A model generated the notes under the pieces. The model saw nothing but the letters and a program-made list of their open reading frames with translations. It was not told the origin of the DNA and did no database searches. The position numbers were made by a program, and so were the translations under genes. A DNA stretch of 64,000 nucleotides. It comes from Eledone cirrhosa (taxonomy: Eukaryota). Shown in pieces: positions 599-48,171 of the stretch (positions within the stretch are counted from its first letter, which is position 1; each line of letters opens with the position of its first letter). The stretch lies in contig OZ024757.1 in NCBI GenBank assembly GCA_964016885.1, positions 12,772,001-12,836,000 of the forward strand. Reading direction: 5' to 3'.

Positions 599-692
599 AA
601 CGAAGGAAATGTGGTAAGGAACCAGGTGGACCATAACGCACCAAAGTACTCAATACTTGAGGTAGTAGAGTGGGTAATAGGAACCAGTAAGA

Positions 693-784
693 CCCCGACA
701 GCTGAGCTCAAGCCGTTTCGACGGCTAATTCTGGACTAAATGAACATTTATCCTGGTATTTAAATAGCCGATCTTCTCAAGGGG
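693..784 (-). ncRNA. Type I hammerhead ribozyme (U3-A8 core variant) in PLE1 pseudo-LTR
   Basis: cccc-TTGAGAA-gatcggcta...tagccgtc-GAAA-cggct tgagctc agctg-TC-gggg. Confidence 0.75.
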
Positions 785-1883
785 TAATTCCATATATGGT
801 CAAAGTGATTGTCAAAAATCAGTAGTAATTCTGTGGTTGCAAATTAGTAGGGGAGATGGTGGCTAAACCTGCCAGTAGGAGAAAGAGGGGAGGGGGTGGA
901 GTAGACCCAATCAAGCGTTGGTAGTGCCAGCTACAGCTGGGCATGAGGTCAAAGAAGATACAGGGGAGGGGGAGGGGGAGGAAGTCGGAACGGTAGGTAG
1001 AACAATGGGGGGTAGAAATAGGAAAGAAAAAATACTGAGAGTGAAGGAAAGCAAATAAGTGTAAAGAAAAAATTAAATTCTACGACCTAGGTGTCAGGCT
1101 ATTGTTAGGCGAGAATAAAATAAAGAAAGAAAGAAAGAAGTAAATAAATAAATAAATAAATAAATAAGGAAATAAGTATAGAACTAGGTGGGACGAATTA
1201 GGCAAGGACCCTTTTAAGAGGTATAAGTACGTAAATGATACGGTGACTGGTCAACAAAAGGGGCCAAAATACTAAAGAGACTACCACGAAATAAACAATA
1301 AAGGTTTCCATCCCGGGCCAGCAACGACCCAGTGCAGCAAAGTGAACTTGTACGACATAATAATTCTGAGTCCCGAGAAAAATATATACTAATGCTAACT
1401 CTAAAAGATCTAAAACAAGCTACATGAAAGTTCGTACGAAATAAAGGTAGAATACGGAGAAATAAGTTCAGAATCCACCCCGCCCAGAAGAAAAGCGAAG
1501 CAAGAAATACTGAAACGAAAAAAATAAGGCATAAGTGCCACTAAGAAATATAGAGGACACAGAGAATAGTGGGAGCGGTCGGAAAAGGGGGGCAAGTATC
1601 CGGGGTCTAAGCCAACTGCTATAAAGGGCGGAGTCCGCCAAATCTATCAAAGACTAGGGGAGGGGGGAGTGGGGGTACTAAGGCTACATGGGGCCAAAGG
1701 GCAGCCTCGGGTGGGCGAGAAAAGACGCCGACAAAGGAGAAGAGCTGGGGTAGAAGGACAAAGGAGAGAGGGGGGAAGGAAATAAAGGATGCGATAAATG
1801 AATACAAAGAAGATCTTACGTCTTCCTTGGCAAGCAGGGGTTACCCATTGCAAAATCGGCAACTGGGGTGTTATAGCCCTAGT

Positions 1884-3814
1884 CTACCCCCCCGGGTCAT
1901 TATGGGGTTTGAGGGCGAGGTAAGTCCTACGCAATCTATGTTTACATGCAGTAACCAGTTCATCTTTCTTGTTTAGGAGTTGGTCCGTCGAAAACAGCAT
2001 TTGTAAAGTTTCCTCCGAGCATAAATTGCACGGACGGCGTCCTCCCGTGTAAGAATTGGCTCTGGACAGTAATCTCCAAGTGAGATCATAGGTGATGTTG
2101 TTGTCCTTGAGGTCCCATATGTGGCCCGAAAGTGTAGTGGCGTGACGCCGGGCCGGGTTTCGGAAGGTATGTCTATGTTGGTATAGCCGGGTCTTGAAGT
2201 CACATGCGGTAAGTCCTATATAGGCTTTGTTGGAGGTATCCGTCCTCACGTTGCACTGGTAGATCACATTACGGTCTCTGCATCTATTGTCGAGTGGGCA
2301 AATAGATCTATCCGGGCAGTTACACCTCCTGGTCGGTTCTCCACTGCTATTTAGGTTATTTCTGCCATCGGGGTTGAGTTTTTTGTTGTTAGAGGAGACG
2401 ATGTTTTGTGCGAAGTTTGGTGTAGTGCTGTAAGAGAGTTTGATGGTATTTTTGTTAATTATGTTGTGGTAGCGGTGTTGTAATGGGAAGTGTTTTTCAA
2501 TGAGCCTAAAGAATAGTTTCCCGATGGGAGTAGTCACCTCTGCGTTGTGGGGAGGATTGAACCATGTTACATTGCGTGAGCGGCGGTGTCTCCTGCTGGT
2601 TCCGCTAATGGGATCTGGACAGTAGGATATTTCCTCCCGGAAACCACTCCGCTTGAGGGCCTGGTTGTAATAAGGCGCATGTTCATCGAATATCCGCTCA
2701 TTAGCTGACAAACGGGATATGCGGAGGGAGATGTTTTTGACCAGGTTGTTTGTGATGTTCCTAGGATGGTTTGATCGGCGGTGGATGTAGTGCAGATTGT
2801 CATTAGGTTTCCTGTATGGGTAGTACAGGTCGTTTTCGAGGTCGAGGGTTACGTCCAGGAAGTTTACTCGGGTCAGGGACGTTTGTAGGGTTATTTTAAA
2901 TCCCCAGTCGCGGAAGAATCTGATTAATTGTTTCCGGACCCGATCTGTACTACTGGGGTTGTACCCTTTAAGGGTAAGGAGCCCATCATCACGGTACAAT
3001 CCACCACCGAATGCAGGAAACATATCAGTGAGTTTGGCTATTAGGAATAATCCTATAAGATCAGTGACCTCCGCCGAATCCGTAGCGCCCATGCTGACGT
3101 CGAAGGGTGAGTCGGGAGCTCTTTTTATCCATTTAGAGTCGTCAAAGAGTAAGACTGTCTTCCTGGCGTGGAGGATGATTTTTCTTTCCTGGTCGGTGAT
3201 GGGCACGAGTGTTTCGGCGAAGTCCAAGGCGGCAGTAAGTAGCGGTAAGGTGATTGAAGCATAGTAGCTCTCTATGTCGAACTGTATGAATTTAGTTTCT
3301 CGTTTATCCTCCATATTGCTGAACCAGGAGATTACTTCCTGGGTGTTGATCCATAGGCTAAGTCGGGTGTGTTGCTTGACTTTTGGTATCACGCGGTCTA
3401 GGATTTTTTTGCTGATTCTCCCTATGTCGGACTTCGTTGGGTTAATAAGCCTGATGGAGGGTTTACGGTCAAAATCGGATTTATGGTCCTTCAGTGTGAA
3501 GTATGGTGTCCGTGGGTCTAGAGGTTCCGTGCGGTCGGCGACCCCGAGGCTGGAGGTGATTTGTTGTCCATCTCGATTTATGTCCTCGATGCAAGAGTGG
3601 TTGGCCTTTTTATAGGTGGAGTTTAGGCTGCTCCTGATCAGTGTGTGGTATCTGTCAGGGTTGACAAAGTATAGGTTCCCAGTTTTATCCGAATGCACCA
3701 TGATGTCATTTGTGTTATCATACTCTGTTAAGTTGCTACGGAGTTTTTGTAGGAATCGGTTGTGTCTGGGTTTAAATTTAATGTTCTTGACCAGTTGGAA
3801 GAGGTCATTCTCGA
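1884..3814 (-). CDS. PLE reverse transcriptase + GIY-YIG endonuclease, 5'-truncated (frame open upstream of Met 3701 to the inversion junction)
   Basis: DKTGN, QFDIESYY, MGATDS, YRDD, FLDVTLDL, WFNPP, CNC-x5-C linker, VIY..YIG; upstream in-frame FENDLFQLVKNIKF; no stops. Confidence 0.9.
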
Positions 3815-4709
3815 AGTACCCCCACTCCCCCCTCCCCTAGTCTTTGATAGATTTGGCGGACTCCGCCCTTTATAGCAGTTGGCTTAGACCCCGGATACTT
3901 GCCCCCCTTTTCCGACCGCTCCCACTATTCTCTGTGCCCTCTATATTTCTTAGTGGCACTTATGCCTTATTTTTTTCGTTTCAGTATTTCTTGCTTCGCT
4001 TTTCTTCTGGGCGGGGTGGATTCTGAACTTATTTCTCCGTATTCTACCTTTATTTCGTACGAACTTTCATGTAGCTTGTTTTAGATCTTTTAGAGTTAGC
4101 ATTAGTATATATTTTTCTCGGGACTCAGAATTATTATGTCGTACAAGTTCACTTTGCTGCACTGGGTCGTTGCTGGCCCGGGATGGAAACCTTTATTGTT
4201 TATTTCGTGGTAGTCTCTTTAGTATTTTGGCCCCTTTTGTTGACCAGTCACCGTATCATTTACGTACTTATACCTCTTAAAAGGGTCCTTGCCTAATTCG
4301 TCCCACCTAGTTCTATACTTATTTCCTTATTTATTTATTTATTTATTTATTTACTTCTTTCTTTCTTTCTTTATTTTATTCTCGCCTAACAATAGCCTGA
4401 CACCTAGGTCGTAGAATTTAATTTTTTCTTTACACTTATTTGCTTTCCTTCACTCTCAGTATTTTTTCTTTCCTATTTCTACCCCCCATTGTTCTACCTA
4501 CCGTTCCGACTTCCTCCCCCTCCCCCTCCCCTGTATCTTCTTTGACCTCATGCCCAGCTGTAGCTGGCACTACCAACGCTTGATTGGGTCTACTCCACCC
4601 CCTCCCCTCTTTCTCCTACTGGCAGGTTTAGCCACCATCTCCCCTACTAATTTGCAACCACAGAATTACTACTGATTTTTGACAATCACTTTGACCATAT
4701 ATGGAATTA

Positions 4710-4801
4710 CCCCTTGAGAAGATCGGCTATTTAAATACCAGGATAAATGTTCATTTAGTCCAGAATTAGCCGTCGAAACGGCTTGAGCTCAGCTGTCGGG
4801 G
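4710..4801 (+). ncRNA. Hammerhead ribozyme, inverted copy in PLE1; predicted cleavage after C4797 (GUC)
   Basis: Reverse complement of 693-784. Confidence 0.75.
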
Positions 4802-4992
4802 TCTTACTGGTTCCTATATGTATATATATATATGTATATATATATGTATATATGTATATATATATATGTATATATATATATGTATATATATACGTATATA
4901 TATATATGTATATATATATATATGTATATATATGTATATATATATGTATATATATGTATATATATGTATATATATATGTATATATATATATG

Positions 4993-5102: not shown

Positions 5103-5196
<94 letters not shown>

Positions 5197-5375
5197 AGGG
5201 TGTTAAAGTTTGCTTGAAGCATTGTGAAATGTGTAAAATACGTAGTTAAGAAAGCCACAACAATATCGAGGTTGGAAGTGAAAGATAGATAGGAAAAACA
5301 GGTGAAAGTGAAAATTGAGAGAGACAAAGATGAAAACAAAACAAAGGTAGAAGGGTTACCGTAGTGGAGATTTAA

Positions 5376-5411
5376 TCCCAATATTTCGGGCTCACGCCCA
5401 TCAACGGGGGA
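5376..5411 (-). ncRNA. Minimal HHR-like motif with non-canonical core (PLE2); inverted copy at 7486-7521 (+)
   Basis: ccc-CCGTTGA-t-gggc GTGA gccc-GAAA-tatt-ggg; stem II covaries with the motif at 22103-22140. Confidence 0.55.
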
Positions 5412-6001
5412 AAGTTCCAAAAGGGAGGGAACAGGCCAAGCGGAGAAAGTTGTGATGTCGTTAAGACAGGAATGCCGTTATGGGGAGAAAATTATTTAAA
5501 ATTTAAACGAGGGAAAGAATGCGCGTGCGCGTCATAGGCTGTGGCAAAAACTACTGACCAAATGGGTTAAATCAAGAGGGTGCGCTAGCGTGTGAAAGCC
5601 GTAAGATATGTGTGTGTAAATATATATGTGTGTGTATAAGTGTAAGTGTGTATATGTGTGAGTGTGTGTGTGTGTGAAAGATAGTGGGCTGTAGAAGCTG
5701 GAAATCAAAGGGTGTGAAAGGTGGTAGGTTGTAAAACATGTGTGCGTGTATAAATATAGATGTGTGTGTGTAAGCGTATGGGTATACATGTGTGTGTAAC
5801 TGTGTGTGTATATGTATGAGTGCGTTTGTGTGTGAAAGATAGTGGGCTGTAGAAGCTGGAAATCAAAGGGTGTGAAAGGTGGTAGGTTGTAAAACATGTG
5901 TGCGTGTATAAATATAGATGTGTGTGTGTATGCGTATGGGTATGCATATACGTACGTGTGTGTGAAGATAGCAGGCCGTAGGCTGTGAATGGTCACTATG
6001 G

Positions 6002-7312
6002 TTAAGTTAGCCATGTCAGCTCATTTCTCTCAGCCCGGTTGTTAAGTGGGGGTCTGAGGTTCTTAATAACAAGTGTTTCCTTTATCCTTAAGGATCCGAT
6101 GCTGCGTTCAGTCGCTAGGACTGTGACCAAGGGTCTACCCTGTGGGTTTCCGCATTTAAGGATGTGTTTACGGAAGGAAGATGCGTTGGTGTTGATATGT
6201 TCCTTGATACGAACATGTAGGGGTCGGATGGTGCTACCTATGTAAAACTTGTTACATTTATCGCATTGAATCTTATATACGACATAGGTGCGTAGGCAAT
6301 CTGCCCCCCGTATCGGGCAGTTGCTGAGGGAACACGTCCCATCTGACTCGTCGGGTTTGTTGGAGAGGCATCTTCGCAGCGAAGGTCCTGTGTGGGCCAA
6401 ATGTATGTCAAGTCCCTCCGTCCGTATGGCCCTGCGGATGGCGTTCGTGGTGTATTCACTCAGGTGGGGGATTTTAAAGAAGCACCTGCTTTTATTTAAG
6501 TTTCTAGTGGGTGTCTGTCTATTGGGTCTGGGGTCTCTAATTCCGTTAATCAGTCGCTTGGGATAACCATTAGATCTGAGTAGATTACGGAATTGCGTGG
6601 TATGGGTGAGACCACCCATCGGGTCGCTGCATCTGTTAGTGATCCGTGTCAGTTCATTTAGGACATAGCCTCTCTTAGCGTTGTTGGGGAGGGCTGAGTT
6701 ATAATGCACAAATAAGTCCTTGCCCGCTGCTTTGCGGTAGAAGGTGGTGTTTATGTCTCCTTCTTCCGAGATGTTGATACGGAAGTCGAGGAGGGCGAGT
6801 GACCCGTCTTCTCCTGGGTGTTCGATGGTGAAATCGACGTGATGGTCAGTATCGTTGAAGATTTGGTGAATTTCATTCGCCATCTCCCGGGAAGAAGTAA
6901 GTATCAGGATGTCATCAACGTATCTGGAGTAGAAGGCGACGGGGTTGGGTTGGCAGGTATTGAGTGCCTTGCGTTCCAGGTGGTCCATGTACGAGATCGC
7001 AAGTATGCCGGACAGACTAGAGCCCATAGGTAGCCCAGAGATTTGTTTGTACGTGTGGCCGAGGAAATTGAAGAGTGCATTATCCACAACGAAGGAGAGG
7101 AGTTGGTGGATGTCCGTGTGTGTGAGTCCGAAGCAGTGTAAGTTAGATGCTCGAACTCGTTCGGTCAACAGGTCGACAGCTGGGGATGCTGGTACGGAGG
7201 TATAAAGGGCGACCACATCAAGACTGAAGGCATAACCGTTGTCCTTTCTGGTGTTGGGCGCCAGATGGTGTAGTCGCTCCAAGACCTCCTTTGAGCTGCA
7301 GACGTGGGCTGG
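6002..7312 (-). CDS. PLE RT + GIY-YIG endonuclease, 5'-truncated (first ~22 aa of the listed ORF come from the inverted arm and filler)
   Basis: SLDVVALYTSVP, YKQISGLPMGS, RYVDD, LLDF, NGYP, Cys linker, VVY..FYIGST..RIKEH, E..LN. Confidence 0.9.
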   Translation of the reverse strand, partial: PAHVCSSKEVLERLHHLAPNTRKDNGYAFSLDVVALYTSVPASPAVDLLTERVRASNLHCFGLTHTDIHQLLSFVVDNALFNFLGHTYKQISGLPMGSSLSGILAISYMDHLERKALNTCQPNPVAFYSRYVDDILILTSSREMANEIHQIFNDTDHHVDFTIEHPGEDGSLALLDFRINISEEGDINTTFYRKAAGKDLFVHYNSALPNNAKRGYVLNELTRITNRCSDPMGGLTHTTQFRNLLRSNGYPKRLINGIRDPRPNRQTPTRNLNKSRCFFKIPHLSEYTTNAIRRAIRTEGLDIHLAHTGPSLRRCLSNKPDESDGTCSLSNCPIRGADCLRTYVVYKIQCDKCNKFYIGSTIRPLHVRIKEHINTNASSFRKHILKCGNPQGRPLVTVLATERSIGSLRIKETLVIKNLRPPLNNRAERNELTWLT

Positions 7313-7673
7313 TAGTGTGTGTATGTATGTGTATATGTGTGTGTAGCTTTTGCCACAGCCTATCACGCGCACGCGCATTCTTTCCCTCGTTTAAATTTTA
7401 AATAATTTTCTCCCCATAACGGCATTCCTGTCTTAACGACATCACAACTTTCTCCGCTTGGCCTGTTCCCTCCCTTTTGGAACTTTCCCCCGTTGATCGG
7501 CGTGAGCCCGAAATATTGGGATTAAATCTCCACTACGGTAACCCTTCTACCTTTGTTTTGTTTTCATCTTTGTCTCTCTCAATTTTCACTTTCACCTGTT
7601 TTTCCTATCTATCTTTCACTTCCTACCTCAAGATTTCCCTCTGCATTGTTGTGGCTTTCTTAACTACGTATTT

Positions 7674-7712
<39 letters not shown>

Positions 7713-8072: not shown

Positions 8073-8200
8073 GTATATATGTATATATATGTATATATAT
8101 ATATATGTTTATATATGTATATATATATATGTATATATATATATATGTATATATATGTATATATATAGATGTATATATATATATGTATATATATATATAT

Positions 8201-10138
<1,938 letters not shown>

Positions 10139-12004: not shown

Positions 12005-12013
<9 letters not shown>

Positions 12014-12409
12014 GACGTAAAATAAGAAAATTATAAAAATTTACTTACTTCCTAAAATTTCACTCTAACTAATTAGTTTCTGAAATGGAATAAACATGGT
12101 TTCCGATTGGAACAACATGGAGAAATGTCCTTTCGTCATCAGGGAGATCTGTTCTCAGCTAAGTTCCCTGGAATCTAGTCCTCGCTTGCTTTTTTCCATC
12201 CACTGAATTATTTTTATATAAGTTCCCTGTGTCCACGCTTTGCCTGGGAACTTAGCTGAGAACAGATCTCCCTGATGACGATAGGACATTTCTCCATGTT
12301 GTTCCAATCGGAAACCATGTTTATTCCCTTTCAGAAACTAATTAGTTGGAGTGAAATTTTAGTAAGTAAGTAAATTTTTATAATTTTCTTATTTTACGTC
12401 TTTCATATA
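12005..12409. mobile_element. Small inverted-repeat element (arms ~12005-12168 / 12246-12409), HHR in each arm
   Basis: HHR 12268-12351 (+) and 12063-12146 (-): ctcc-CTGATGA-c-ga(a/t)agg...cctttc-a-GAAA-ctaattag-TT-ggag. Confidence 0.7.
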
Positions 12410-12678
12410 ATTGTTCTGCATCCCCTTGCATTGAACCACAAAGTTACTAAGATAAAACCTATATATTTGCTAGCATCGGTATACATCTGTATATATATGT
12501 CGGTAGATATACTAATTCTTTATAAATATATATATATATATATATAAGTCAGATGTATGGTAGGTCGTATGTGAATCGCGATGATCACGTCTGACCTACC
12601 AAATATGTGACGGTAGCTAGTTAAGCTCTATGCGTATACGCGTTGATGTAAATAATGATCCTACAATCACATGTTAGA

Positions 12679-12725: not shown

Positions 12726-12852
12726 ATAAACTCGTTATAATGTCATAATAGTTCCTTTGTTCTTTTTCACTAATATATATATATATATATATATATATCG
12801 TTTCTGAATTTGTTTAGCAAGATTCTTTATCTGAAATCGTGTGTTGAAACCG

Positions 12853-13373
12853 ATATTGTTATACTTTGGGAGGGTCATGTTGCCAATAAGAAACACACGC
12901 ACCAGTTGCTTTCACTTCAATTTAATTTAATATATATTTATAAATTTACAAATTTATAAATTTCTGGTTGGTTGGTTGGTTCCACAACCAGATAGTTGTT
13001 TATATATATATAGTCATAGTTCTTTCGTCACACACTCTGTGACCTCTTCAGTGACTGGGGATTTCTTTCTTCGTTTCTGTGCCTTTCCTTTCTTCTATCC
13101 TACGCCATACAAACAAAATGGCGTAGGATAGAAGAAAGGAAAGGCACAGAAACGAAGAAAGAAATCCCCAGTCACTGAAGAGGTCACAGAGTGTGTGACG
13201 AAAGAACTATGACTATATATATATAAACAACTATCTGGTTGTGGAACCAACCAACCAACCAGAAATTTATAAATTTGTAAATTTATAAATATATATTAAA
13301 TTAAATTGAAGTGAAAGCAACTGGTGCGTGTGTTTCTTATTGGCAACATGACCCTCCCAAAGTATAACAATAT
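12853..13373. mobile_element. Near-perfect palindrome (256-bp arms, 9-nt spacer), HHR in each arm
   Basis: Arms 12853-13108 / 13118-13373; HHR 13170-13214 (+) and 13012-13056 (-): agtca-CTGAAGA-g-gtcaca gagtg tgtgac-GAAA-gaac-TA-tgact. Confidence 0.8.
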
Positions 13374-13396
13374 ATATATATATATATACACATATA

Positions 13397-13633
13397 TTTG
13401 GATTTAATGCTCTGAAATAGCGATATATATGTGAAGATAAACACAGAATATTCGAAAATATTCCGTATGTTTATAATAAACATTTTGAAGACCTAATCGC
13501 TATAGAATAGAATACGTCACGTATTACAATTTGAGATTCCCGATAAAAGCAAGGGAAGTAACCTACGCGTTTCATTCTTATTAGAAATCATCAGGATTAC
13601 ATATCCAATGCTTTTATCGAGAATGACACAGCT
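13397..13633 (-). mobile_element. Diverged partial monomer of HHR repeat family B (HHR 13558-13600)
   Basis: Aligns by eye to the 312-bp unit at 15901-16847. Confidence 0.8.
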
Positions 13634-13645
13634 TATATATACATA

Positions 13646-14854
13646 AAGGTGACGTGGTTGCCTTAACACCGTATGGCATAAATTCAGGCTGTTCAGTTTG
13701 TTTACAAACGAACAAAGCGACGTTAGCGCCGCTAAACTGATACGTGCATATATGTATGTGTACCTGTATGCATATGTATGTATATATGTATATATATATA
13801 TATATGTGCATGCTACTGTACGTCTGTATACATATATGTATGTACGTATACATGCATACTTACATTTAAGTAAGTGCCATACTAAGAGTGAGAAATGAAA
13901 TTTCGTTTTCATTTTGTTTCAATTTATCGTTTTCGGTATGCCTGACCGATTTAACTCACTCAATATGCAAATTAGGCTGCTCAGCCGTTAATTTTCATAA
14001 GGAAAGTATATACTTTCGAACGTTCAACTATCTGGCAGATGGGTAAACGGTGCTGATGATAGCTAACAAGCTTGAAACTAGTACATCGTTCCTGTGTCAG
14101 TGTTGAACAAAAAGGTGACGTGGTTGCCTTAACACCGTATGGCATAAATTCAGGCTGTTCAGTTTGTTTACAAACGAACAAAGCGACGTTAGCGCCGCTA
14201 AACTGATACGTGCATATATGTATGTGTACCTGTATGCATATGTATGTATATATGTATATATATATATATATGTGCATGCTACTGTACGTCTGTATACATA
14301 TATGTATGTACGTATACATGCATACTTACATTTAAGTAAGTGCCATACTAAGAGTGAGAAATGAAATTTCGTTTTCATTTTGTTTCAATTTATCGTTTTC
14401 GGTATGCCTGACCGATTTAACTCACTCAATATGCAAATTAGGCTGCTCAGCCGTTAATTTTCATAAGGAAAGTATATACTTTCGAACGTTCAACTATCTG
14501 GCAGATGGGTAAACGGTGCTGATGATAGCTAACAAGCTTGAAACTAGTACATCGTTCCTGTGTCAGTGTTGAACAAAAAGGTGACGTGGTTGCCTTAACA
14601 CCGTATGGCATAAATTCAGGCTGTTCAGTTTGTTTACAAACGAACAAAGCGACGTTAGCGCCGCTAAACTGATACGTGCATATATGTATGTGTACCTGTA
14701 TGCATATGTATGTATATATGTATATATATATATATGTGCATGCTACTGTACGTCTGTATACATATATGTATGTACGTATACATGCATACTTACATTTAAG
14801 TAAGTGCCATACTAAGAGTGAGAAATGAAATTTCGTTTTCATTTTGTTTCAATT

Positions 14855-14857
<3 letters not shown>
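13646..14857 (+). mobile_element. Second array of HHR repeat family A (~2.6 units, 466-bp period)
   Basis: HHRs at 14047-14089 and 14513-14555; ends in (TA)n. Confidence 0.85.
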
Positions 14858-14888
<31 letters not shown>

Positions 14889-15636
14889 CATATATATATA
14901 TACATATTTATTAAAATAACAGATTAAAGTTTAAGCAAAGAATCGCTGCTTTCACCCTTAACGGGATCTTCTGAAACTAACAAAGTCAATCTGTAAACGA
15001 GAAGCTAACAGTATTCCATAACATATATGCGACTATACTGTCAAAATGGGAAAATAGTTAACATAAGATATGGGAAAATAATTCAGACTCAATTCAAAAG
15101 GAATCAGGATATAGATTTATCCAACAGAATTTAGAGAAATCCAGGGAAAAATCAATAGATCCTTAACTCATGATAAAACAAAGTCTAAAGTACTCAACCT
15201 TCAATTTGGGACAACTTCAAATGCTCTGTATAGTCTTGAAAAGACTATTTCACAAAACCTTTCAGTGGAGATGATCACGGTTGGATTTCGTTCCTCAGCA
15301 GAGCTCAACATGGTAACCAAGGTCTCACTGGTAATATGCCAAAAAGGGAATTTAAAAGCAGGCTAGTTTAACATCATGCGTGGTTATTAAAATAAATGCA
15401 CATGTGGAAAAACAGGGCTGGTGACGTCAGAATGAGACAAATGTTTGTTTACATGAAACAACAGTCAAAAACATTCCGAAAGAAAACTCTACAAAAGGAG
15501 TTCAGCAAAAAGCAATATCATCGCGGTCTTTTTCCCCCAAAAAATACCGGGATTAGTCACAAATAATTTAAGCACTCTAAGAAATAAATCCGAGTATATA
15601 TATACATATGTGTGTGTGTGTGTATATATATATATA

Positions 15637-16847
15637 TGAAAACAAACATAGAATATTCGAAAATATTCTGTATGTTTATAATAAACATTTTGAAGACCCA
15701 ATCGCTATAGAATAGAATACGTCACGTATTACAATTTGAGATTCTCGATAAAAGCAAGGGAAGTAATCTACGCGTTTCATTCTTGTTAGAAATCATCAGG
15801 ATTACATATCCAATGCTTTTATCGAGAACGACACAGCTAGAGACTTATAGAATACTTAGCTGTGTACAGGAACTGGTTTGAAAGAGCGGTAGCCGGTCCG
15901 GCATTAAATCCAAATTCTAATTTCTGCCGGACCGGCTACCGCTCTTTCAAACCAGTTCCTGTACACAGCTAAGTATTCTATAAGTCTCTAGCTGTGTCGT
16001 TCTCGATAAAAGCATTGGATATGTAATCCTGAGGATTTCTAACAAGAATGAAACGCGTAGATTACTTCCCTTGCTTTTATCGAGAATCTCAAATTGTAAT
16101 ACGTGACGTATTCTATTCTATAGCGATTGGGTCTTCAAAATGTTTATTATAAACATACAGAATATTTTCGAATATTCTATGTTTGTTTTCACATATATAT
16201 CGCTATTTCAGAGCATTAAATCCAAATTCTAATTTCTGCCGGACCGGTAACCGCTCTTTCAAACCAGTTCCTGTACACAGCTAAGTATTCTATAAGTCTC
16301 TAGCTGTGTCGTTCTCGATAAAAGCATTGGATATGTAATCCTGATGATTTCTAACAAGAATGAAACGCGTAGATTACTTCCCTTGCTTTTATCGAGAATC
16401 TCAAATTGTAATACGTGACGTATTCTATTCTATAGCGATTGGGTCTTCAAAATGTTTATTATAAACATACAGAATATTTTCGAATATTCTGTTTGTTTTC
16501 ACATATATATCGCTATTTCAGAGCATTAAATCCAAATTCTAATTTCTGCCGGACCGGCTACCGCTCTTTCAAACCAGTTCCTGTACACAGCTAAGTATTC
16601 TATAAGTCTCTAGCTGTGTCGTTCTCGATAAAAGCATTGGATATGTAATCCTGATGATTTCTAACAAGAATGAAACGCGTAGATTACTTCCCTTGCTTTT
16701 ATCGAGAATCTCAAATTGTAATACGTGACGTATTCTATTCTATAGCGATTGGGTCTTCAAAATGTTTATTATAAACATACAGAATATTTTCGAATATTCT
16801 ATGTTTGTTTTCACATATATATCGCTATTTCAGAGCATTAAATCCAA
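15637..16847 (+). mobile_element. Tandem HHR-bearing non-coding repeat, family B (retrozyme-like): 3 units of 310-312 bp (15901-16847) preceded by an inverted partial unit (15637-15903)
   Basis: HHRs at 16023-16065, 16335-16377, 16645-16687 (+) and 15763-15805 (-); many internal hairpins. Confidence 0.88.
16335..16377 (+). ncRNA. Type I hammerhead ribozyme, family B
   Basis: gtaatc-CTGATGA-t-ttct aaca agaa-t-GAAA-cgcg-TA-gattac; stem I extended by a 14-bp helix tctcgataaaagca/tgcttttatcgaga across an internal loop. Confidence 0.92.
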
Positions 16848-16870
16848 AAAATATATATATATATATGTAG

Positions 16871-16991
<121 letters not shown>

Positions 16992-17329
16992 GATACACAC
17001 ACACACACACATATATATATATACACACACACACATATACATACACACACATATATATACATACACACACATATATATACATACATACACACATACACAG
17101 ATATATATATACATACACACACACACATATATACATACACACAGGACGTGCAAGAAATCCTGTTTCATGTGTGAGAAACTATAGTAACTATCGTACCTAC
17201 ATTATAAACACTGGACATAGACTTCATTTCTAGCCTATATACATCTATTAATTATATATACATGTGTAGATCTTTTTATATACACACACGTAGAATAGGA
17301 AAACAGAAAGAAAATATATTTTATTGATC

Positions 17330-35715: not shown

Positions 35716-35929
35716 AGCACTTGCCTTTTCTTCATCCAAGAGCAATCTTACGCTGATATATGTCTTATTACTTGTACCAACTAAATGCTACATTACAACT
35801 TTGTAGAAGAAGAAAGCCGAGTTCTGCAGTTTTTTATGGACCCTTTGTATATTAGACTACATAGCATACCTACATTTCTTAATGTAAAAGTGGTGAGACT
35901 CCTTTATGTAAAGATCACTAGCTAAAAAT

Positions 35930-37111
35930 ATGTCTGAATATAACTGTGAGATTTGTAGGAAAACTTTCTCTTCAAAACTGAAACTAACCTCACATGGGAA
36001 AATACACACAGGAGAAAAACCCTTCCACTGTGAAATATGTGGGAAATATTTTGTCTTGAACAGTGATTTAAAAAGGCATATAAGAACACACACTGGAGAA
36101 AAACCTTTTGCATGTGAAATATGTGGGAAATCTTTTTCTCAAGGTTCTCATCTTGTAGATCACAAAAGAATACACACAGGAGAAAAACCTTATTCATGTG
36201 AAATATGTGGGAACTCTTTTCCTCGTGTTGCTAATCTTGTAAAACACAAAAGAATACACACAGGAGAAAAACCTTATTCATGTGAAATATGTGGGAAATC
36301 TTTTTCTCAAGGTTCTAGTCTTGTACGTCACAAAAGAATACACACAGGAGAAAAACCCTTCCATTGTGAAATATGTGAGAAATCTTTTTCTAGTAATTCT
36401 ACACTTGAAGATCACAAAAGAATACACACTGGAGAAAAACCCTTCCATTGTGAAATATGTGGGAAATCTTTTTCTCAGAGTTCTCATCTTGTAGATCACA
36501 AAAGAATACACACAGGAGAGAAACCCTTCCATTGTGAAATATGTGGGAAATCTTTTTCTCGTGGTTCTCATCTTGTATATCACAAAAGAATGCACACAGG
36601 AGAAAAACCTTATTCATGTGAAATATGTGGGAAATATTTCACTCAGATGGTGCAACTTGAATATCACAAAAGAACACACACTGGAGAAAAGCCCTTCCAT
36701 TGTGAAATATGTGGGAAATCTTTTTCACATGATGGTAACTTAGTAAAACACAAAAGAATACACACAGGAGAAAAACCTTATTCATGTGAAATATGTGGGA
36801 AATCTTTTTCTCAAGGTTCTAGTGTTGTACGTCACAAAAGAATACACACTGGAGAAAAACCCTTCCATTGTGAAATATGTGGGAAATCTTTTTCTCGTAG
36901 TTCTCATCTTGAACTTCACAAAAGGATACATACTGGGGAAAAACCCTTTCATTGTGAAATATGTGGGAAATCTTTTTCTAATAGTTCTCATCTTGTAAAT
37001 CACAAAAGAATACATACTGGTGAAAAACCTTATTCATGTGAAATATGTCGGAAATCTTTCTCTCAGAATTCGTCACTGGTTGTTCACCTACGTAGTCAAC
37101 ACTTGCAATAA
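35930..37111 (+). CDS. C2H2 zinc-finger protein, 14 tandem fingers, single coding exon
   Basis: CxxC-x12-HxxxH repeats with TGEKP linkers; intact 393-aa ORF; no KRAB/ZAD/BTB evident. Confidence 0.95.
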
Positions 37112-39400: not shown

Positions 39401-42400
39401 TCATTACATATACGTTTCCATGCTTGCATGGGTTGGACGGGTCCTTCTTAGCACGACATCTCTCCACTAGATACATTCCTTTCTCATCTCATTTTCCAGT
39501 CTTCACGATTTGAGTTAAGCTCTCACAACATTTGCCCCTGACTTTCTTGGTCATCCTCTACTGCAGCTTCCTTCCACTAGGATTTCCTCAGCTAGTACAA
39601 GCTCTGTATTTCACTCACATATACGTTGCAGATCCAACAAAACATGGTTGCTTCATTTTTCTCCTGTCTAATCGCATCATCTGCAGTCACAGCCCATGTT
39701 TCTCTACCATGCAGTATTGTGCACTTCACACAGCCTTTATATACCCTTCCTTGTGTGTGTAGGGAGAAACCTTATGTTATCAGCAGTAGCAGTTCACTAA
39801 ACTTCCATCCTATCCTTATTCAAGCCACTCTACTCTTGGTACACCCTCCTCTGCTGTTGATTAGGTCACCTAGATAGCAGAAGCTATCAACCACATCTAT
39901 AGATCCTTCCTGTGACTGGAAACGGTGAATAACAGTAGCACTCTTCCTCTCAATTTCTGTTGTGCTGCCTAACCAACCACTTCCTCTCTGTCCCCACACT
40001 GCTGATTTCCTTCTCAAAATTAGAAAGACAACAGCCCACTTGAGGAAGGAGTCCCATGGGGTGGGGTGGATGTTGCAGTGGGTGTCTCTGGCTATTCTTT
40101 GTGGTAGCACCTTTGTTATTTTGTCTGTAGGGTGGGGCTGAATCACAGCTCAGACTGGAATATAGTGCCTGCCCCTCACCCTCTCCCATTGTTTTCGTTG
40201 CTAGATACGTTTTCGTTACTATATAAAATATAATTAGATTAATTAAAGTTATAATTAAGATAGCAGGTCGTTGACAATGTTTCCCTTTCCGGTGTTTGAC
40301 CAGTGTCATACGTTAAAAGTCCCTAATATAATTTAAAATATAAATATATTACCTGTACGTTGATAAACACACACTCTCTCGTGTGTAATCGTTTCTTATA
40401 TATATATATATATATAATATAATATAATAATAATAATAATAATAATGAAATATTGTGTACAGTGCTCAGGTGCACTACAACTCATCAAAAGTGTATGTAT
40501 AGTACATAGGGTAATGTACAAACGTCAGGAAAATGAACAGTGCATGAGTCATGCTACACACATGTGCATGTGTATGGAAGGGGTACATCAGGTGTAGTTT
40601 TGGCGTATTTCGGGAAGCATGAGTGTCTTAAAGGATGCAGTGTCTCAGCAGCTAACAACTGATGCAGGCAATTTGTTCCATGCTTCAGCAACTCTGAGCG
40701 TGAAAAAATGTTTACAAAAGTCATGGGAGCTGTGCTGTTTTCTGATTTTGTAGGCATGTCCATGTGTGTTAGACACATGGAGATCAAAATGGTGCTCAGG
40801 GTTGTAATTGGCAAGATGATTATTAACTTTGTGGGTATTTACCAAGTCTATTGCCAGACGTCAGAGCTTCAATGCATCCATGCCCAGGGAAGCAAGACGT
40901 CAGAGTATGGTAGGTGTCTGATGGAGGGTATGCGCTTGGTTGCACGTCTCTGAACAGTTTCCAGGAGGTCAATGTTCTGAGCAAGATAAGGGTTCCAGAC
41001 TGATGATGCGAATTCCAAGTGTGGTCGTACCATAGGTGTATACAGTTTTAAATAGATGGCTGGAGAGCGGCTAACAAAGGTCTTCTTGACAATTTTAGAG
41101 ACATGCTTTGTCCAACGCAAATCGCTGCTGACAGTAATGCCTAGGTCACGTTCACAAGAGGACTTCTTGATATCTGTGTTGTGGAGGGAGTATGTGGACG
41201 CTGGATTTTTCCTCCCAAAGTGCATGGTGGTACACTTGTCCACAGCCAGCTTCAGTTGCCAGTCTGTGATCCATTGCTGCATTGTGTCCAGGTCTGATTA
41301 TAGGAAAGAGTTGTAGATTTCAGGATCAGTCCTTTTGATTTCAAGGTAAAGCTTGATGTCATCTACATATTTCAGTACCATGGCATTCTGTAAGTTGGCA
41401 TCTATGTCATTAATATATGCCACAAACAAAAGGGGACCAAGAACAGATCCCTGTGGTACACCAGATGACATCTCATATGGTGAAGAATGCTGTCCTAGAA
41501 CCGTGACTACCTCTTTTCGGCTGAGAATGAAGGATTTCAACCAGTTGAAAAGATCATCCCTCACACCCATTGCAGAGAGTTTTTCCATAAGTCTTTTGTG
41601 TGGCACAGAATTAAAAGCCTTAGCAAAGTCAAGGTAAACAACATCCACCCATGAGCCGCCGTCAGTGATCCGGGTGATGTCGTCAAGGAACTCGATAAGC
41701 TGATCACAGCAGCTGGAGTTAGGGATAAATCCAAACTGTGAAGGCCGGATGAGGCTGTGAGAGCTCCAGAAGTTCCAAAGTGTTTCTCTGACACAGGATT
41801 CCATCAGTTTGGCAATACAGCTAGTAAGACTGACTGGACGATAGTTGACAGGTGACATGCAGTTGCCCTTTTTGAACAGGGGAATGACACTGGCAGTTTT
41901 CCACTGCTCCGGAGTAGCACCATTGTTGAGACAGTATTGAAAGAAAAAAGAAAGCTGGCGCAAAAGGAAATACCCGCCACGTTTGAGAAGCAGGTATGTA
42001 ACACCATCAAGACCAGGGGAGGCAGAGTTGCGCTTATTCTTAAGGTGACGTCGCAACATTGCAGGTGTAAATTCCATAGTTGTTATGGAATTTGATGTTA
42101 GAGATGGTGGAGATGGTACATTCTGGTTTTCAACAGTAAAAATACTTGCACAGCACTCAGCAATGAGTTCTGCGCATTCTTTGGGATCGTCAGTGATCTG
42201 GCTTGTGTGGGGATTGCGAAGAGGACCAACTGGAGAGTGAGGTCTCTGCTTTGAATGAACATATTTCCAGAACACCTTATTGTCAGGATTGGTTGCTATG
42301 CACTGTTCAAATTCAAGCACTGCCTTCTTTGTCACTTGCTTGAGATGGTTAGAAGATTTATTCTGCTTTTTTCTGTTGGCATCTGATTTATGCAGTTTAT

Positions 42401-43984
42401 ATTCCCGTTCAGCATTCCAACGTTCTTTCCTGGCAAGTCGGACCGCTGAAGTTTCCCAAATTGCACTTTTGGGGTGGTTTTTTTTCTGCTTACGTGGCAC
42501 CGATGCTGCACACGCTATCCATCTCTAGAGTTATACATCTCATGCCAGTTTGGGCGTTGTAGCTCAGTGCAGTACAAGTTCCAATCTGCTTTCTTCCAAT
42601 CAAAGCAAGCAGATTGGAGATGGCTCTGGTTTTTGTTGCTGCCCGCAAGAGCCAGATTGGCAATGATCATAGCATGATCAGAGTCGCCTAGAGGTTCCTC
42701 AGTAGTACAACTGATAACCACTTCAGGAGTAGTGGTGAAGATCAGGTCCAAAGTGTTGTCACCTCTTGTGACCTGTTTGAGTCCAGCACTAGTTCAAGGA
42801 AATCGTTTGCACCTTGTGGCCAACGAAAGGTTTCCCAATCGATCTCAGGATGATTGAAGTCACCTGCAATAAACACATAAGTGGCTGTTTTCTTGGCAGC
42901 AACTCTGAGGATATCGCAAAGCTGTGTGTCCTGATGGTAGTTTGGGGGGCGATAAACAACACCAAGCAGAAGTATTGACATGGTCATACGTATGTCACAA
43001 AAAAAAACTTCTTGTAATTCGTTCAAATCAACGCAAGTGTTTACCGAAAAGTTTGAACGAACGTAGACCACCACACCACCACCACGGCGATTAATGCGGT
43101 CCTTGCGGAAAAGGTTGTACCCAGTAATGCTGAAAACCCCATCACAGAGTAAGGAATGTGCCCATGTTTCCGTGACAGTGATGAAGTCAGCGTCGATGCT
43201 TCTGATGTAGGAGTCAAACAGATGTATCTTGTTGCATAAACTGCGAGCATTTAAGGACAACAATTTGTACCCTGCTTGCAGTTTATGATGGTGTGTAGAG
43301 GGTAGCAGGTTGTTCTGGTTTAGTTTCCCAGAGTTGTTGCAGTTTTTTTCATTGCCAGTTATTGTGGGTAGAGCACACTCAGACCAGCTGGTATCTCTCT
43401 TCCACGTTTCACCAGCCTTAACAAACCTCCAGATCTGCCCATCACCACGCAGACTAAAACTTTCATGTTGTGCTGAGTTCCGATTCAAGGAATCTGCAGC
43501 ACGTAGCTTTGGACGTACATGGGGTGGTAGGCCAGGGCGTGTTCGGAAGGTAATCCGATTTTCATGCCCAGCTTTAACAGAGGCCAGATGGTATGAGATT
43601 GCCTCAGCGGGGTCCGAAAAAGACAGCCTGATGAGTCTGGGTTTTGAACCAGGTCGGCCAAGGCGGAGAGCACCCTTTGGAGGAACACAGCCTAGGTCTT
43701 TGGCTGAGCTGGCAGCAAATGCCTGAAAATCAGCCTTGTCCTCTGGTACCCCAATAGCAATTACTTCATGGGTAGCAGATTCCGCAGTCTTCTCAGTGTG
43801 CCCAGATACGGCAAGAGGTACAGGGAGATTCTTTAGCAAGGCATTCCGATAAGACCCCTCATTGTGGGGACCTACCCGAATGCTTGCCTTTATTCCTGTT
43901 ACTTCCCTTCTTAAAGCAGAAATCATTAGTTGCAATTCTGCAAAATCTGTACTAGTCGGTTGTTGTTTTTGTTGTTGTTGTTGC

Positions 43985-44033
<49 letters not shown>

Positions 44034-44596
44034 GATGATGTTCCTTCACGGGAATGGTAGGGGAAGACACAGTCGCCGGTTGTTGGTGTCGAGATGTACT
44101 GGGAGCGGAAGACATGGGTTGTTGTTTCTGATATTCTCCCACAGGAATAGCAGCAGAAGCCAGTGTCATGGGTTTTTGCCGTTGTTCAGTAACAATGGTG
44201 GAGGGAGATACAGTCATCGGTTTTTGTTGTTGTTGTTGTTGTTGTTTTTCAATAACATGTGGGTATGGTGTGGCGTGCGGTGGCCGGAAGCGGGGGAGTG
44301 CTCGACCGGAAGGGCCAGCAGATGGCCCTCCCTAGTGGTGACCATCAATGGTGTGGACGCGAGTTTGGCAGCTCCCGGTGTTAAGCAGTTGGACGCACGT
44401 GGAAGAGGAGAGACCAGCAGTGGAATATAGCGGCGCCTATGAAAATCGGTAAGTGAGATAGCTTTTTCTAAACACAAGCTATTTCGGCACTGAAAACTGA
44501 TTTGATGAAAAAAAAAAAAAAAAAAAAAAAAGCTACTGGAAAAACAGAGAGGAGTCTGTTGTTTTTTTTATCACGTACCGCAAGACCAATTAGAAG

Positions 44597-45372
44597 ATGG
44601 CGACAAGACTACGAACAAGCGAAGCTATCAGGGCATTTACCAGGGAAGGTGATGTCGATTGGCTGCGAAAAGTCCGGCTGGTCGCAAGCTTGCAGAAGAT
44701 AGAAGATGTGGCTGGCCTCATGGCACTGTACCTCAAGGGGGACACCTTGGTACTCTTTCTTGAGTTGAACGAACACAGCCAAAGAGATGCGCAAAAGATT
44801 GAGAGGCGCATGATAGAAGCATTCGCAGAAGGACCGTTAGTCGCTTTCGCTAAGCTGGCAAGAATTAGATGGAACGGTGAACGCGTTGACATTTTCGCAG
44901 CGGAAATACGGCGATTGGCCATGTTGGCTGGATATCAGGTGGAATGCGAACACACGGTGCGGTTGGCATTCATAAATGGATTTCCAGACGACATAGCGGT
45001 GAAACTGCAGCAAGTCCCGGGTTACAAAGAAATGGAAATGCGTTCACTGGTGGAACAAGCCCGGATCATAGCAGAAGATGCCAAAAAGAGTGTTGCGGCG
45101 ATAGCAACTACAGAGGCTCAAAACAGCTGGCAGCGAAATGGTGAAAGGGAGGCAACCACGGCACGCGGTCGCCCACGGCACGCGGTCGCCCGCGAACGTT
45201 TAGAGGTCGCTGTTTTCGGTGCCAGGGCCCGCACATGGCTAGAGACTGCAGAGAGTCAAGGCCGGAAATAATATGCTACCGGTGTAAGCGACCAGGCCAC
45301 ATCGCTACTAACTGCGACCAGGGAAACGATCCAAGGGGAACTACTGCGCCGGTAGTTGCCCCTTACGAGTAG
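44597..45372 (+). pseudogene. gag: gag with two CCHC knuckles, frameshifted by a 17-bp tandem duplication near 45156-45190
   Basis: Shifted frame reads CFRCQGPHMARDC and CYRCKRPGHIATNC. Confidence 0.8.
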
Positions 45373-48171
45373 AGGCGCTGCCCGTGGTGGAAGTCTTCGT
45401 GAGGGGAAAGCCACAGCGAGCCCTCGTGGACACGGGCTGTACAACGACACTGGTGACCGCGGGGGGTGGCGCAGAGGTGGAGAGGGAAGAGCAGCGTAAG
45501 GGCAGTCGACGGCAGGAAAATTGAATGCCGAGGTCGCAGTGAGATGGAAATAGCGGTATGGGGAAGGAAAATAAGGCTTTCTGCCATCGTTGTAGACAGG
45601 GTGGTGGATGGGATCGGCGTGGTTATGGGCATGGACGCAATTGGCCGTCTAGGAGGCGTCACAGTGAACAACGTCGGTGTGTCGTTTGGCGCCGCTGCAT
45701 CGGTATGCGCTGTGAGTGCGCGACAGGAGAACCAGAAGGCTCACGAGGAGAAATACCTCGCTTACGCTGTGCAGGACAAGGACTTCAAGGCCGTGTTCGA
45801 TGGGTTGTTGAGTGGTACTGCAAGGGAGAACCACCAACACTGAAGACCAAAGTGGGCTGCTATCAACACACATTGAAGGGAAACATTAGGAGCGAGTTCG
45901 AGCGAGAGGTAGAGAGATGGATTGAGGAGGGCATACTGTTTCCCTGGAAAGAGGAGGTGAAGTGCGGAGTATTGCCGTTAATGGCGGTGGCGCAACACAC
46001 GAAGAACAAGGTGAGGTCGGTGCTGGACTTTCGGGAGCTGAACGAGCACGTGTCATGCCACACGGGTGGCGAGGTCACAGATGTCTGTGGGGAAACCCTG
46101 CGTGAGTGGAGACGCATGACGGGGGGTTCAGCAATCGTAGATCTAAAGTCGGCATACTTGCAATTGCATATAGATGAGAAGCTCTGGCAGTATCAGCTGG
46201 TCAGGTATAAGGGCCAGACATATTGCCTGACCAGGCTCGGTTTCGGGCTGAGCTCCGCACCGAAGATCATGGCGGCGGTCCTCAAGACCATTCTGGGAGA
46301 GGCCAACAAGATGAAGAGGGCCACTAACTCCTATATTGACGACATCTTAGAGGACGAGTCTGTGGTGTCGGCGGCGGAGGTCACGAGCCATTTACAGGGG
46401 TATGGACTGGCTGCGAAGCCGTCAGAAGCATTGGAGGGAGGAGCCGCGCTGGGACTTAGGCTACGGCGAGACAGGACGGGCGTCTTGGTATTCCAGAGGG
46501 CAAATGAAGTTCCAGAACTGGGCCCAAGTATGAGTAGGCGGGAGCTTTTCTCGGTGTATGGAAAGTTGGTGGGTCACTACCCTATTGCTGGGTGGCTCTG
46601 GACGGCATTCAGCTATGTCAAGAGACGAGCAGGAGGAGTGACTTGGAGTGACAGAGTGGGAGAGAGGACGGTGGCCATGATGCAAGAGATTGTGGGGAGG
46701 GTGAAGGCCGACGACCCAGTGCGGGGACGCTGGTATGTTCCCAAATCACAGAGCGGGACTGTATGGTGCGATGCCAGCAGCATAGCGCTGGGTGTCACGT
46801 TGGAGATAGGAGGTGTTGAGGTCGAGGATGCAGCCTGGCTTAGGAAGAAGGGCGACTGCAACCATATCAATGTGGCCGAGTTGGACGCAGTGTTGAGAGG
46901 GGTGAACCTCGCCCTGAGGTGGGGACTGCGTACCATCGAGATACGCACCGACTCGGCTACTGTACTCGGATGGGTGAGATCAGTGCTCACCAGTGAGAAG
47001 AGAGTGCGAACGAGAGGGGCGACAGAGATGCTGATAAAGCGCCGCCTGGGAACTTTAGGAGAGCTGGCCACCGAGTTCGAGCTGAGGCTGAGCGTAGTTT
47101 TCGTGCCCTCCGAGAAAAATAGGGCGGACATCTTAACTAGGGTAAAGAAAGCCTGGATGGAAGCGCCGGCGGAGGTAGAAGATGAGATAGCTGCCGTGTG
47201 TCGGCTGCCCGAGTCGGATCTGAAAGGGTTGCATGACATGCACCACATGGGAGTGGATAGGAGCCTGTTCCTAGCCAGGAGAATCGACTCGGACGTTAAC
47301 AGGCACAGTGTTCAAAGGGTGGTTAGAGGCTGCGTCCGATGTCAATCCATTGATCCCGCCACGGGTGTACACGAAACGGGAAGCCTCCCGGTGGATCGCG
47401 ACTGGAAGCGATTGGCGGTGGATGTAACGCGCTACCGACAGGGAACGTACCTCTCGATGGTCGACTGTGGACCAGGACGGATGGGGATATGGAGGGAGAT
47501 GAAGACTGGAACGGCCGAGGAAATCATGCGGACGTTGAGAGAGGTGTTCTTGGAGCGGGGCCCTGTGGACGAACTGCTGATGGACAACAGCGCAGCGTTC
47601 GGCTCGGAGGCGCTGAGGGAGATGCTCGATGGATGGAAGGTGGACCGTTTCTTCAGAGCAGCGCACAGGCCGAGCGGGAATGGAATTGTGGAGCGACACC
47701 ACCGGACGATCAAGGCAATGGCGGAGCGGGGCCATATCTCACCAATGGAGGCAGTGTTCTGGTACAACATGTCCCCTCGGGTGGGACAGGTCGAGGAATC
47801 GGTGCCACACAGAGCAGTATTCAGATACGAGTGGCGGCACCCGTGCACGCCACCACAACGGCCAGTGGGGGAGAGAGGGTGCATTCGTGCAGGTGGGCGA
47901 AGAAGTCTGGGTTAAGTCCCCAGATGTACGTTGCACATCTCAATGGGGAAGGGGAACGGTGACGGCCGTAAATTCCCAGAACAATGTGTCCGTGGACGGA
48001 GTACCACATCATGTCCTGGATGTCCGTAGAATCACTGTGTCAATGGACTCCGAGGAAGTGGAAACCCAAAGTGCTGCCCCAACACTGCGGAGATCGCAAA
48101 GAAGTCGTAAACCACCAACCTGGACAGCAGACTTTCATATGCAGAAGGACGAGGGGGAAATTGATCCTTGA
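45321..48171 (+). pseudogene. pol: pol (protease, RT, RNase H, integrase) with at least two frameshifts
   Basis: ALVDTG, VLDFRELN, VDLKSAY, YIDD, WCDAS, AELDAV, TDS, H-H-C-C, AVD/MDN/NGIVER. Confidence 0.88.

Follow-up and report, generated by a model that had tools for sequence, protein, structure and literature searches.

The insertion and its neighbours in the window

The window, a 64,000-nt stretch of the Eledone cirrhosa genome, contains a tandem-repeat insertion between a left (TA)n/(TG)n target tract (15595..15637) and a right (TA)n/(CA)n target tract (16849..17143). The right arm of the insertion lies on the plus strand (15901..16848) and consists of units of 312, 310 and 312 nt followed by 14 nt. 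It ends at a fixed site, termed the long site, at circle position 167 as numbered from the cleavage site. For 15901-16848 TRF returned a period of 312, 3.0 copies and 98% matches, in agreement with the unit lengths and with the three near-identical 312-bp units described in a previous sequence-only reading of this DNA. A 14-mer begins at 15901, 16213, 16523 and 16835. The array had been described as bounded by this 14-mer, which is correct for this copy and does not hold as a family rule, as 5' ends in the family are scattered over the unit (73 arms, KS p=0.20) and the outer 3' ends alone are fixed. A type I hammerhead motif was found in each unit of the arm (16017..16069, 16329..16381 and 16639..16691, plus strand), with cleavage predicted after 16059, 16371 and 16681, at the positions already proposed. 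The segment from one predicted cleavage site to the next (16060..16371, plus strand) is the predicted 312-nt monomer, a candidate circular RNA.

The insertion extends beyond the three-unit array. An inverted unit at 15638-15903 had been left undescribed, and the insertion hence has two arms. This fourth unit forms the left arm (15638..15903, minus strand), a 5'-truncated 0.9 unit with a minus-strand hammerhead (motif 15759..15811, core 15799-15793) for which cleavage is predicted between 15769 and 15768. The arm ends at a second fixed site, the short site, at about circle position 132; its final letters blend into the TA tract and can be matched as far as 15628. A 35-nt 'tail' (16814..16848, plus strand) is present at the end of the right arm and missing from the end of the left. 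The arms meet at an inversion junction (15901..15903) in a 3-nt overlap common to both, and their 5' ends lie at unit positions 154 and 178, 24 nt apart. This two-armed layout, absent from the earlier note, is the most informative feature of the insertion.

The second window copy of the 312-nt family (13396..13633, minus strand) is a single 0.8-unit arm with a long end and a hammerhead core at 13594. It sits head-to-head with an array (13641-14855) of a second hammerhead tandem family, also present at 8200-10086, which has a 466-bp unit with its own TA tract, the same loop, bulge and U.U layout as the 312-nt unit, and a tail of ~60 nt. The sequence where the two meet (13634-13640) is possibly the seam of a two-RNA chimera. 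Two small fold-back elements, each with one long and one short end, lie in TA repeats at 12009-12440 and 12790-13370, the latter with a clear hammerhead motif at 13175 and 13051. At 599-4816 lies a 5'-truncated two-armed copy of a very young Penelope-like element (PLE) with Hydra-like motifs, full copies of which have a 784-aa frame and are 99-100% identical. It has a tandem period of ~3.5 kb and a tail of ~78 nt, and no hammerhead was found in it, though the clade is described as always having one. A two-armed Penelope/Poseidon-like element in TA repeats (5194-7674) gave RVT_1 and weak GIY-YIG matches and has a tail of ~41 nt. Neither of these two PLEs showed homology to the 312-nt unit, nor a hammerhead by motif scan. 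Further along the window, translations and TRF placed a C2H2 zinc-finger gene, LINE-like fragments, an LTR-retrotransposon-like gag-pol and a 60-bp satellite of 56 copies at 35912-37111, 41298-44331, 44594-47915 and 54098-57462.

Hammerhead fold and genomic copies of the 312-nt unit

Each unit carries, in order, the helix I 5' strand, CTGA(T/G)GA, helix II, GAAA, CGC-GTA^ (predicted cleavage at the caret) and the helix I 3' strand, unit 1 having G at free position 7 of the core. In motif 2, helix I comprises 6 bp, a bulge and 3 bp; helix II comprises a U.U pair and 3 bp under a 6-nt loop; and helix III is one pair with a palindromic tetraloop. Helix I extends beyond the bulge as a 15-16 bp helix. 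The bulge and helix II loop are presumably partners in the usual tertiary contact, as in the Schistosoma ribozyme. The description 'canonical' in the sequence-only reading thus fits the core and the bulge/6-nt-loop layout, and does not fit the U.U at the base of helix II or the single pair and palindromic tetraloop of helix III. Rfam returned nothing at gathering score on the window. Its sub-threshold HH9 matches (21.7 bits vs 52, E 0.049) included one in the left arm at 15749-15814, and sub-threshold matches to miRNA families were rejected as fold-back or TA artefacts.

For analysis of covariation, six equal-length hammerhead variants of this genome were picked for the same helix II size, giving a gap-free alignment. 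Changes on both sides were found in 10 of 15 pairs, with 0/500 shuffles as high. On the hammerhead structure 94% of cells pair and slid controls came nowhere near this value, which, the sequences being related, is not a probability. The helix I bulge, the 6-nt helix II loop and the palindromic tetraloop in place of helix III are common to all six variants. The covariation shows that the hammerhead fold is kept up across families. The linear fold of the unit was far better than that of shuffles (z -5.2). Folding as a circular RNA, proposed along with the retrozyme reading, gave an MFE of -72.3 kcal/mol (z -5.3), with 0/100 shuffles as low. Two copies co-fold through the palindrome at -42.1 kcal/mol, against 2 x -18.0 kcal/mol, and on this modelling the ribozyme probably needs the dimer form to work. 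The weak palindromic helix III is like that of the axolotl hammerhead HHR_Amex1 and the helix II U.U like that of HHR_Amex2, and axolotl hammerheads with these two weak points are described as cleaving better as dimers (Cervera and de la Pena, 2020, PMC7229834). The core is intact in 151 of the 159 units that cover it. No purifying selection on the core was detected in young copies, in which 9/2,110 core positions and 280/48,017 other positions were changed.

The unit has a GC content of 34% (106/312). The earlier statement that it has no ORF was upheld, the longest stop-free stretch on the rolled unit being 56 aa, and rolling translation was excluded on the same ground. An autonomous Penelope-like element was likewise ruled out, as the 312-nt unit has no RT/GIY-YIG ORF.

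In a genome of ~3.0 Gb, a 32-nt pattern of the hammerhead core gave 5,184 exact matches and its control 0, so that the dispersed copies expected under the retrozyme reading number in the thousands. Young arrays, 94-100% identical to the window unit, are spread across many contigs. Two samples were examined. Sample 1 comprised 39 loci from 552 scored candidates and is biased toward young, full-length copies. Sample 2 comprised 11 clusters within the first 100 matches on contig 1, taken in chromosome order, and represents one chromosome end. The counts leave out L055 together with the second copy in L045 (a duplicated locus), and two short pieces, namely 53 nt in L031 and the 92 nt of L110 that overlap L109. 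Arms ranged from 0.2 to 18.9 units in length, and there were no terminal repeats besides the unit and no LTR. L110 has 20 full units, all of 308 nt, L112 has 13 identical units and L113 has 12. The flanks of L001-L125 held about a dozen or more distinct type I hammerhead families, often beside TA tracts, some of them tandem (~467-bp spacing in L053).

All sequence-testable defining features of animal non-LTR retrozymes were found in the family, namely a non-coding low-GC tandem unit, at 310-312 nt within the class range of about 150-450 bp, a hammerhead motif in 4/4 units, dispersed multimers and a stable predicted circle. Four of five features of a PLE passenger were found with them: fixed 3' ends with variable 5' truncation, a head-to-head inverted copy, a ~35-nt tail and an intact PLE sharing the target. 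The retrozyme reading first put forward for the array is thus supported by helix covariation, thousands of dispersed copies and near-homogeneous units that cross the cleavage site.

Insertion footprint and Penelope-like elements

Two arms were found at 42/50 loci in the two samples, every pair head-to-head, and no tail-to-tail pair was present among these 42 insertions. A long end was paired with a short end in 36/42; long/long and short/short pairs were both absent from the 42. In sample 1, 34/39 loci were two-armed and 28 of the 34 paired a long and a short end; in each of the remaining six, one arm stopped at an intermediate point, at a gap or at some other place. In sample 2, 8/11 loci were two-armed and 8/8 of these were long plus short. 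Sixty-seven of the 73 arms of sample 1 finish at the long site (164-174, mostly 167-168) or at the short site (~132, blurred by an internal TA-like run), and the difference between the two sites is the tail of ~35 nt. TA repeats directly adjoin 62 of the 67 long or short ends; target-site duplication is unreadable in such flanks. The long-end arm was the longer of the pair in 13/28 and the shorter in 15/28. The same end asymmetry, at sites of their own, is seen in five further elements within the window's first 15 kb, of which two are PLEs with ORFs.

At the 42 arm junctions there were 19 overlaps, 6 flush joins, 15 joins with 1-20 extra bases and 2 with more. At L111:2390-2670, 281 nt of unrelated GC-rich sequence separates the arms and had no match in the window or in the other loci compared. 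At L056:2254 an arm ends beside the cleavage site with a short palindrome fold-back, at neither a long nor a short end.

An inverted truncated copy, a tail of 30-40 bp often at one end only and microsatellite targets are described as the footprint of PLEs (Craig et al., 2021, PMC8557442; Arkhipova et al., 2013, PMC3846280). In vitro, PLE protein is reported to have cut and extended both strands, with two internal RNA start sites that bound the tail, and is predicted to be a dimer (Frangieh et al., 2024, PMC11167929). Judged from its sequence features, the two-armed layout with fixed long and short ends is the footprint of Penelope-like elements.

Intact TA-flanked PLEs with the same two-armed layout are present in the genome. 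RT and GIY-YIG motifs were found in three families, PLE1, E and F, with hammerheads 5' of the ORF in two of them, and a count of long and short ends flanked by TA was made for two. For PLE1, whose frame measures 784 aa, 68 matches were scored, at 99-100%, and the tandem period is 3.5 kb; a motif scan found no hammerhead in it. In family E the frame is 844 aa long, a hammerhead precedes it, and the motif occurs in 1,000 exact copies. For family F, which also has a hammerhead ahead of the ORF, 9,393 motif copies were counted, and the frames seen were incomplete or split. The motifs DKT, CxCx5-7C linker, GIY-YIG, CxxC and CxH correspond to the list given for the TA-targeting Hydra clade, an assignment made by motifs alone. 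A Penelope/Poseidon-like family is also present. Pfam matched pieces of the latter only, plus one family F frame weakly, and missed the other Hydra-like ORFs. In a homologue search, many relatives carried PF26215.

Over the hammerhead core and helix II, family F and the 312-nt unit are alike at 26/28 nt, about half of which is forced by the core. Among the four PLE families compared, no start-site region shared with the unit was found, and the similarity to the F hammerhead was the sole one. A pattern for sister hammerheads, allowing C or G at the first helix II pair, matched 4 times, and no PLE ORF was seen alongside. No PLE sequence was found beside most arrays of the 312-nt family. At L050:1290-3598 a 4.2-unit arm has its 5' end fused to helix II of a family E hammerhead, the rest of the E tail being missing from the 2.4 kb past the fusion; a template switch could account for this, as could a nested insertion with loss. 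Families E and F are candidate partners only, and neither the F similarity nor the L050 fusion names the partner.

Template, alternatives and relation to known elements

The two arms of one insertion agreed at eight marker sites in 28/31 insertions, against a shuffled mean of 8.4 and a maximum of 17 in 10,000; three of the 31 were discordant. In L039, L045, L046, L051 and L054, rare variants were fixed in all typed units of both arms. Arm 5' ends were not enriched at the cleavage site (2/73 vs 2.3 expected), and 64 of the 67 long- or short-ended arms cross it. A cleaved linear monomer was therefore not the template, and since the arms run through the cleavage site, the template would be either a ligated circle or an uncleaved multimer. 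Unit homogeneity favours the circle. The shared alleles, the arms of up to 19 units and the crossing of the cleavage site fit a single RNA circle that was reverse-transcribed in rolling fashion from both ends of the target. Nine variants were present in at least two but not all units of an insertion, and variants recur at 7-unit spacing in L110 and at 4-unit spacing in L111. Partly shared and regularly spaced variants are not predicted by a pure monomer circle; later duplication, conversion or multimeric templates therefore contribute, and the repeat patterns show, as far as sequence comparison goes, that some arrays underwent later local duplication.

No RNA-editing signature was found in the genomic copies, in which sites were few and singletons mostly C>T and G>A. 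Contigs from four of five listed sequencing runs, none of them recorded as RNA, were compared with the unit; contigs as such do not reveal an RNA circle. Loose ends of run X5 (kind unrecorded) were compared with window 16213-16522. Three of the five listed differed from the natural 310-nt subtype by clustered one-way changes only (6 T>C in 22 nt, 3 A>G in 14 and 3 T>C in 13), the fourth was exact and the fifth was unplaced. Contigs less than 95% alike made up 127/163 in X5 and 80/452 in run X1. The clustered changes look like A-to-I hyper-editing of double-stranded RNA from inverted arms, in a run whose kind is unrecorded. Run X4 (another organism's label, kind unrecorded) gave a single self-closing contig of 342 nt, approximately one unit plus overlap, at a depth of 18.5; either a single circular RNA variant or a uniform tandem array could give such a contig.

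The favoured explanation, held with reasonable though not strong confidence, is that the 312-nt repeat is a non-coding animal non-LTR retrozyme, likely moved in trans by a PLE protein that, once a TA microsatellite is cut, would copy a single, likely circular RNA from each of the two ends. Its parts differ in strength. That the 312-nt retrozyme is moved by a PLE is held with high confidence; two separate RT starts per insertion are likely; and a monomer circle as the usual template is somewhat favoured. In the proposed mechanism, read-through transcripts of the arms would self-cleave, probably as dimers via the palindromic helix III, and a host ligase would close the monomer. Self-cleavage followed by circularisation by a host ligase has been reported for other retrozymes (PMC7229834). 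Against this, eight of nine Xenopus retrozyme dimers assayed are reported not to have cleaved. A PLE endonuclease-RT complex would then cut both (TA)n strands. The same RNA would be copied by one RT starting at about position 167 and by another starting at about 132, each rolling round until drop-off, and the two cDNA ends would be joined via short overlaps or small insertions. A more specific form is proposed tentatively, as somewhat less than an even prospect. In it every insertion would be a double rolling-circle event, in which an asymmetric PLE RT dimer, primed from both cut (TA)n ends on one 312-nt ribozyme-made circle, sets its two subunits on different sites, the long and the short, and yields two multimeric arms.

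The alternative that survives best keeps the same PLE machinery and the two starts and replaces the circle by an uncleaved linear transcript of the multimeric array. The hammerhead would then be slow or dispensable, and local duplication or conversion would keep the arrays long and homogeneous. Hammerhead cleavage is reported as not needed by an anole PLE in vitro, for which unprocessed RNA was the main substrate (PMC11167929), and the weak helix III and U.U pair predict slow cleavage of the monomer by comparison with the hammerheads described in PMC7229834. The variants confined to some units and recurring at 4- and 7-unit spacing also favour a linear multimer, as does the autonomous PLE1, in which a scan found no hammerhead and which is also arrayed in tandem, with a period of 3.5 kb. 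On the other side, it is hard to reconcile with rare variants that all typed units of both arms carry, and with arrays in which 12-20 units are identical or of one length, since a new variant would need passage through a monomer, or conversion, to reach all units. Arrays would also be expected to shorten in every round under linear copying alone, and the helix covariation indicates a ribozyme fold that is maintained across families. A linear template is considered rather unlikely, though it deserves weight.

A less probable alternative is that the RNA templates one arm only, the cDNA end then folding back to self-prime the inverted arm, with resolution by the endonuclease setting the second fixed end. 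Self-priming has been suggested for PLEs (PMC3846280), as has 'EN-mediated resolution' (PMC8557442). Mirror-like junctions, with 5' ends <=30 nt apart, were in excess (15/42 vs 8.5 expected, P=0.012) and included that of the window, and fold-back would explain allele sharing between arms with no need of one RNA for both. The 13:15 split of longer and shorter arms does not count against it, as the longer arm can in every case include the shorter. However, 27/42 junctions are not mirror-like, and fold-back requires that the first start fall equally often at either site, with the cut at the other. In addition, RNA-templated extension of both target strands, from starts that match the two ends of the tail, is described in vitro (PMC11167929). 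The excess of mirror-like junctions fits fold-back priming in a minority of insertions.

Very little weight is given to a satellite origin, in which the end repeat of a PLE would have multiplied locally through unequal crossover, with no retrotransposition of multimers, following the model of a recent preprint (bioRxiv 10.64898/2026.07.22.740005). The higher-order duplication in some arrays and the resemblance of the unit's helix II to that of the family F hammerhead agree with it. It is opposed by the scatter of young arrays, 94-100% identical to the window unit, over many contigs, each array being truncated at a point of its own and having fixed outer ends flanked by TA, and by the lack of adjoining PLE sequence at most of them. 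A fold-back artefact, in sequencing or assembly, as the source of the inverted arms can practically be dismissed, in spite of the long TA tracts around the arrays and the N gaps in L038, L061 and L107, because such an artefact should give mirrored sequence, yet the outer ends differ in a fixed way (36/42), the flanks differ and five other window elements share the asymmetry at sites of their own.

The animal non-LTR retrozymes described by Cervera and de la Pena (PMC7229834) likewise have a non-coding tandem unit of 170-400 nt with GC <50%, one type I hammerhead each and thousands of copies, together with a strongly self-paired predicted circle and PLEs in the same genome. Their cleavage and circles were shown by experiment, whereas those of the Eledone unit are predicted from sequence. 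PLEs are named there as strong candidates only, and the main text contains neither the words 'inverted', 'tail' and 'microsatellite' nor a two-armed layout with paired ends. The conclusion that PLE enzymes move retrozymes was also reached by Li, Clavereau and Pollet (bioRxiv 10.64898/2026.07.22.740005), on the basis of co-occurrence and end-repeat phylogeny in 35 genomes and with local tandem amplification proposed, whereas the basis here is the insertion footprint. The preprint text as available does not contain 'mollus', 'tail' or 'insertion site'. Unlike the end-repeat kinship it describes, the homology of the 312-nt unit to a PLE end repeat is confined to the hammerhead.

Endonuclease-bearing PLEs, especially those of the TA-targeting Hydra clade, are described with the same 5' truncation, partial tandems, adjacent inverted copy, 30-40 bp tail at one end, microsatellite targets and two internal RT start sites (PMC8557442, PMC3846280, PMC11167929). 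The 312-nt unit differs from them in having no ORF and in not being 3-5 kb, and both of its arms are often multimeric. In these accounts the tail is optional, or 'often at one end', whereas the long/short pairing in the 312-nt family was counted and is strict. The non-autonomous Chlamys elements, e.g. MRC1, are likewise described as non-coding PLE passengers with multicopy head-to-tail insertions (PMC8557442). They are green algal, mostly have no canonical hammerhead and have a 3' end like that of their autonomous partner, a likeness not detectable in the 312-nt unit. In the literature consulted, no two-armed tail-bearing retrozyme insertion and no cephalopod retrozyme was found; the supplement of PMC7229834 (life-cycle figure, other invertebrates) may bear on this.

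The link between retrozymes and PLEs is thus already proposed in print, and the class of element is itself known, which limits the surprise; the value of the family lies in insertion-level evidence, in the form of a counted footprint. The mover enzyme of animal retrozymes, and circles as true transposition intermediates, are stated to be open questions in PMC7229834, and the origin of the inverted repeats and tail of PLEs is stated to be unresolved in PMC8557442 and PMC11167929. The counted footprint of the 312-nt family ties the mobilisation of retrozymes to the latter question. The data support a real, young, high-copy retrozyme family, the footprint of which backs mobilisation by PLEs. With predicted start sites, and beside intact candidate enzymes, the family offers a young high-copy substrate on which the circle-template model is directly testable. 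If the double rolling-circle event is true, the tail and inverted repeat of PLEs would be the obligatory product of dimer geometry rather than an optional by-product, and the 312-nt RNA would be a minimal natural substrate with which to reconstitute Penelope-type integration from a circle.
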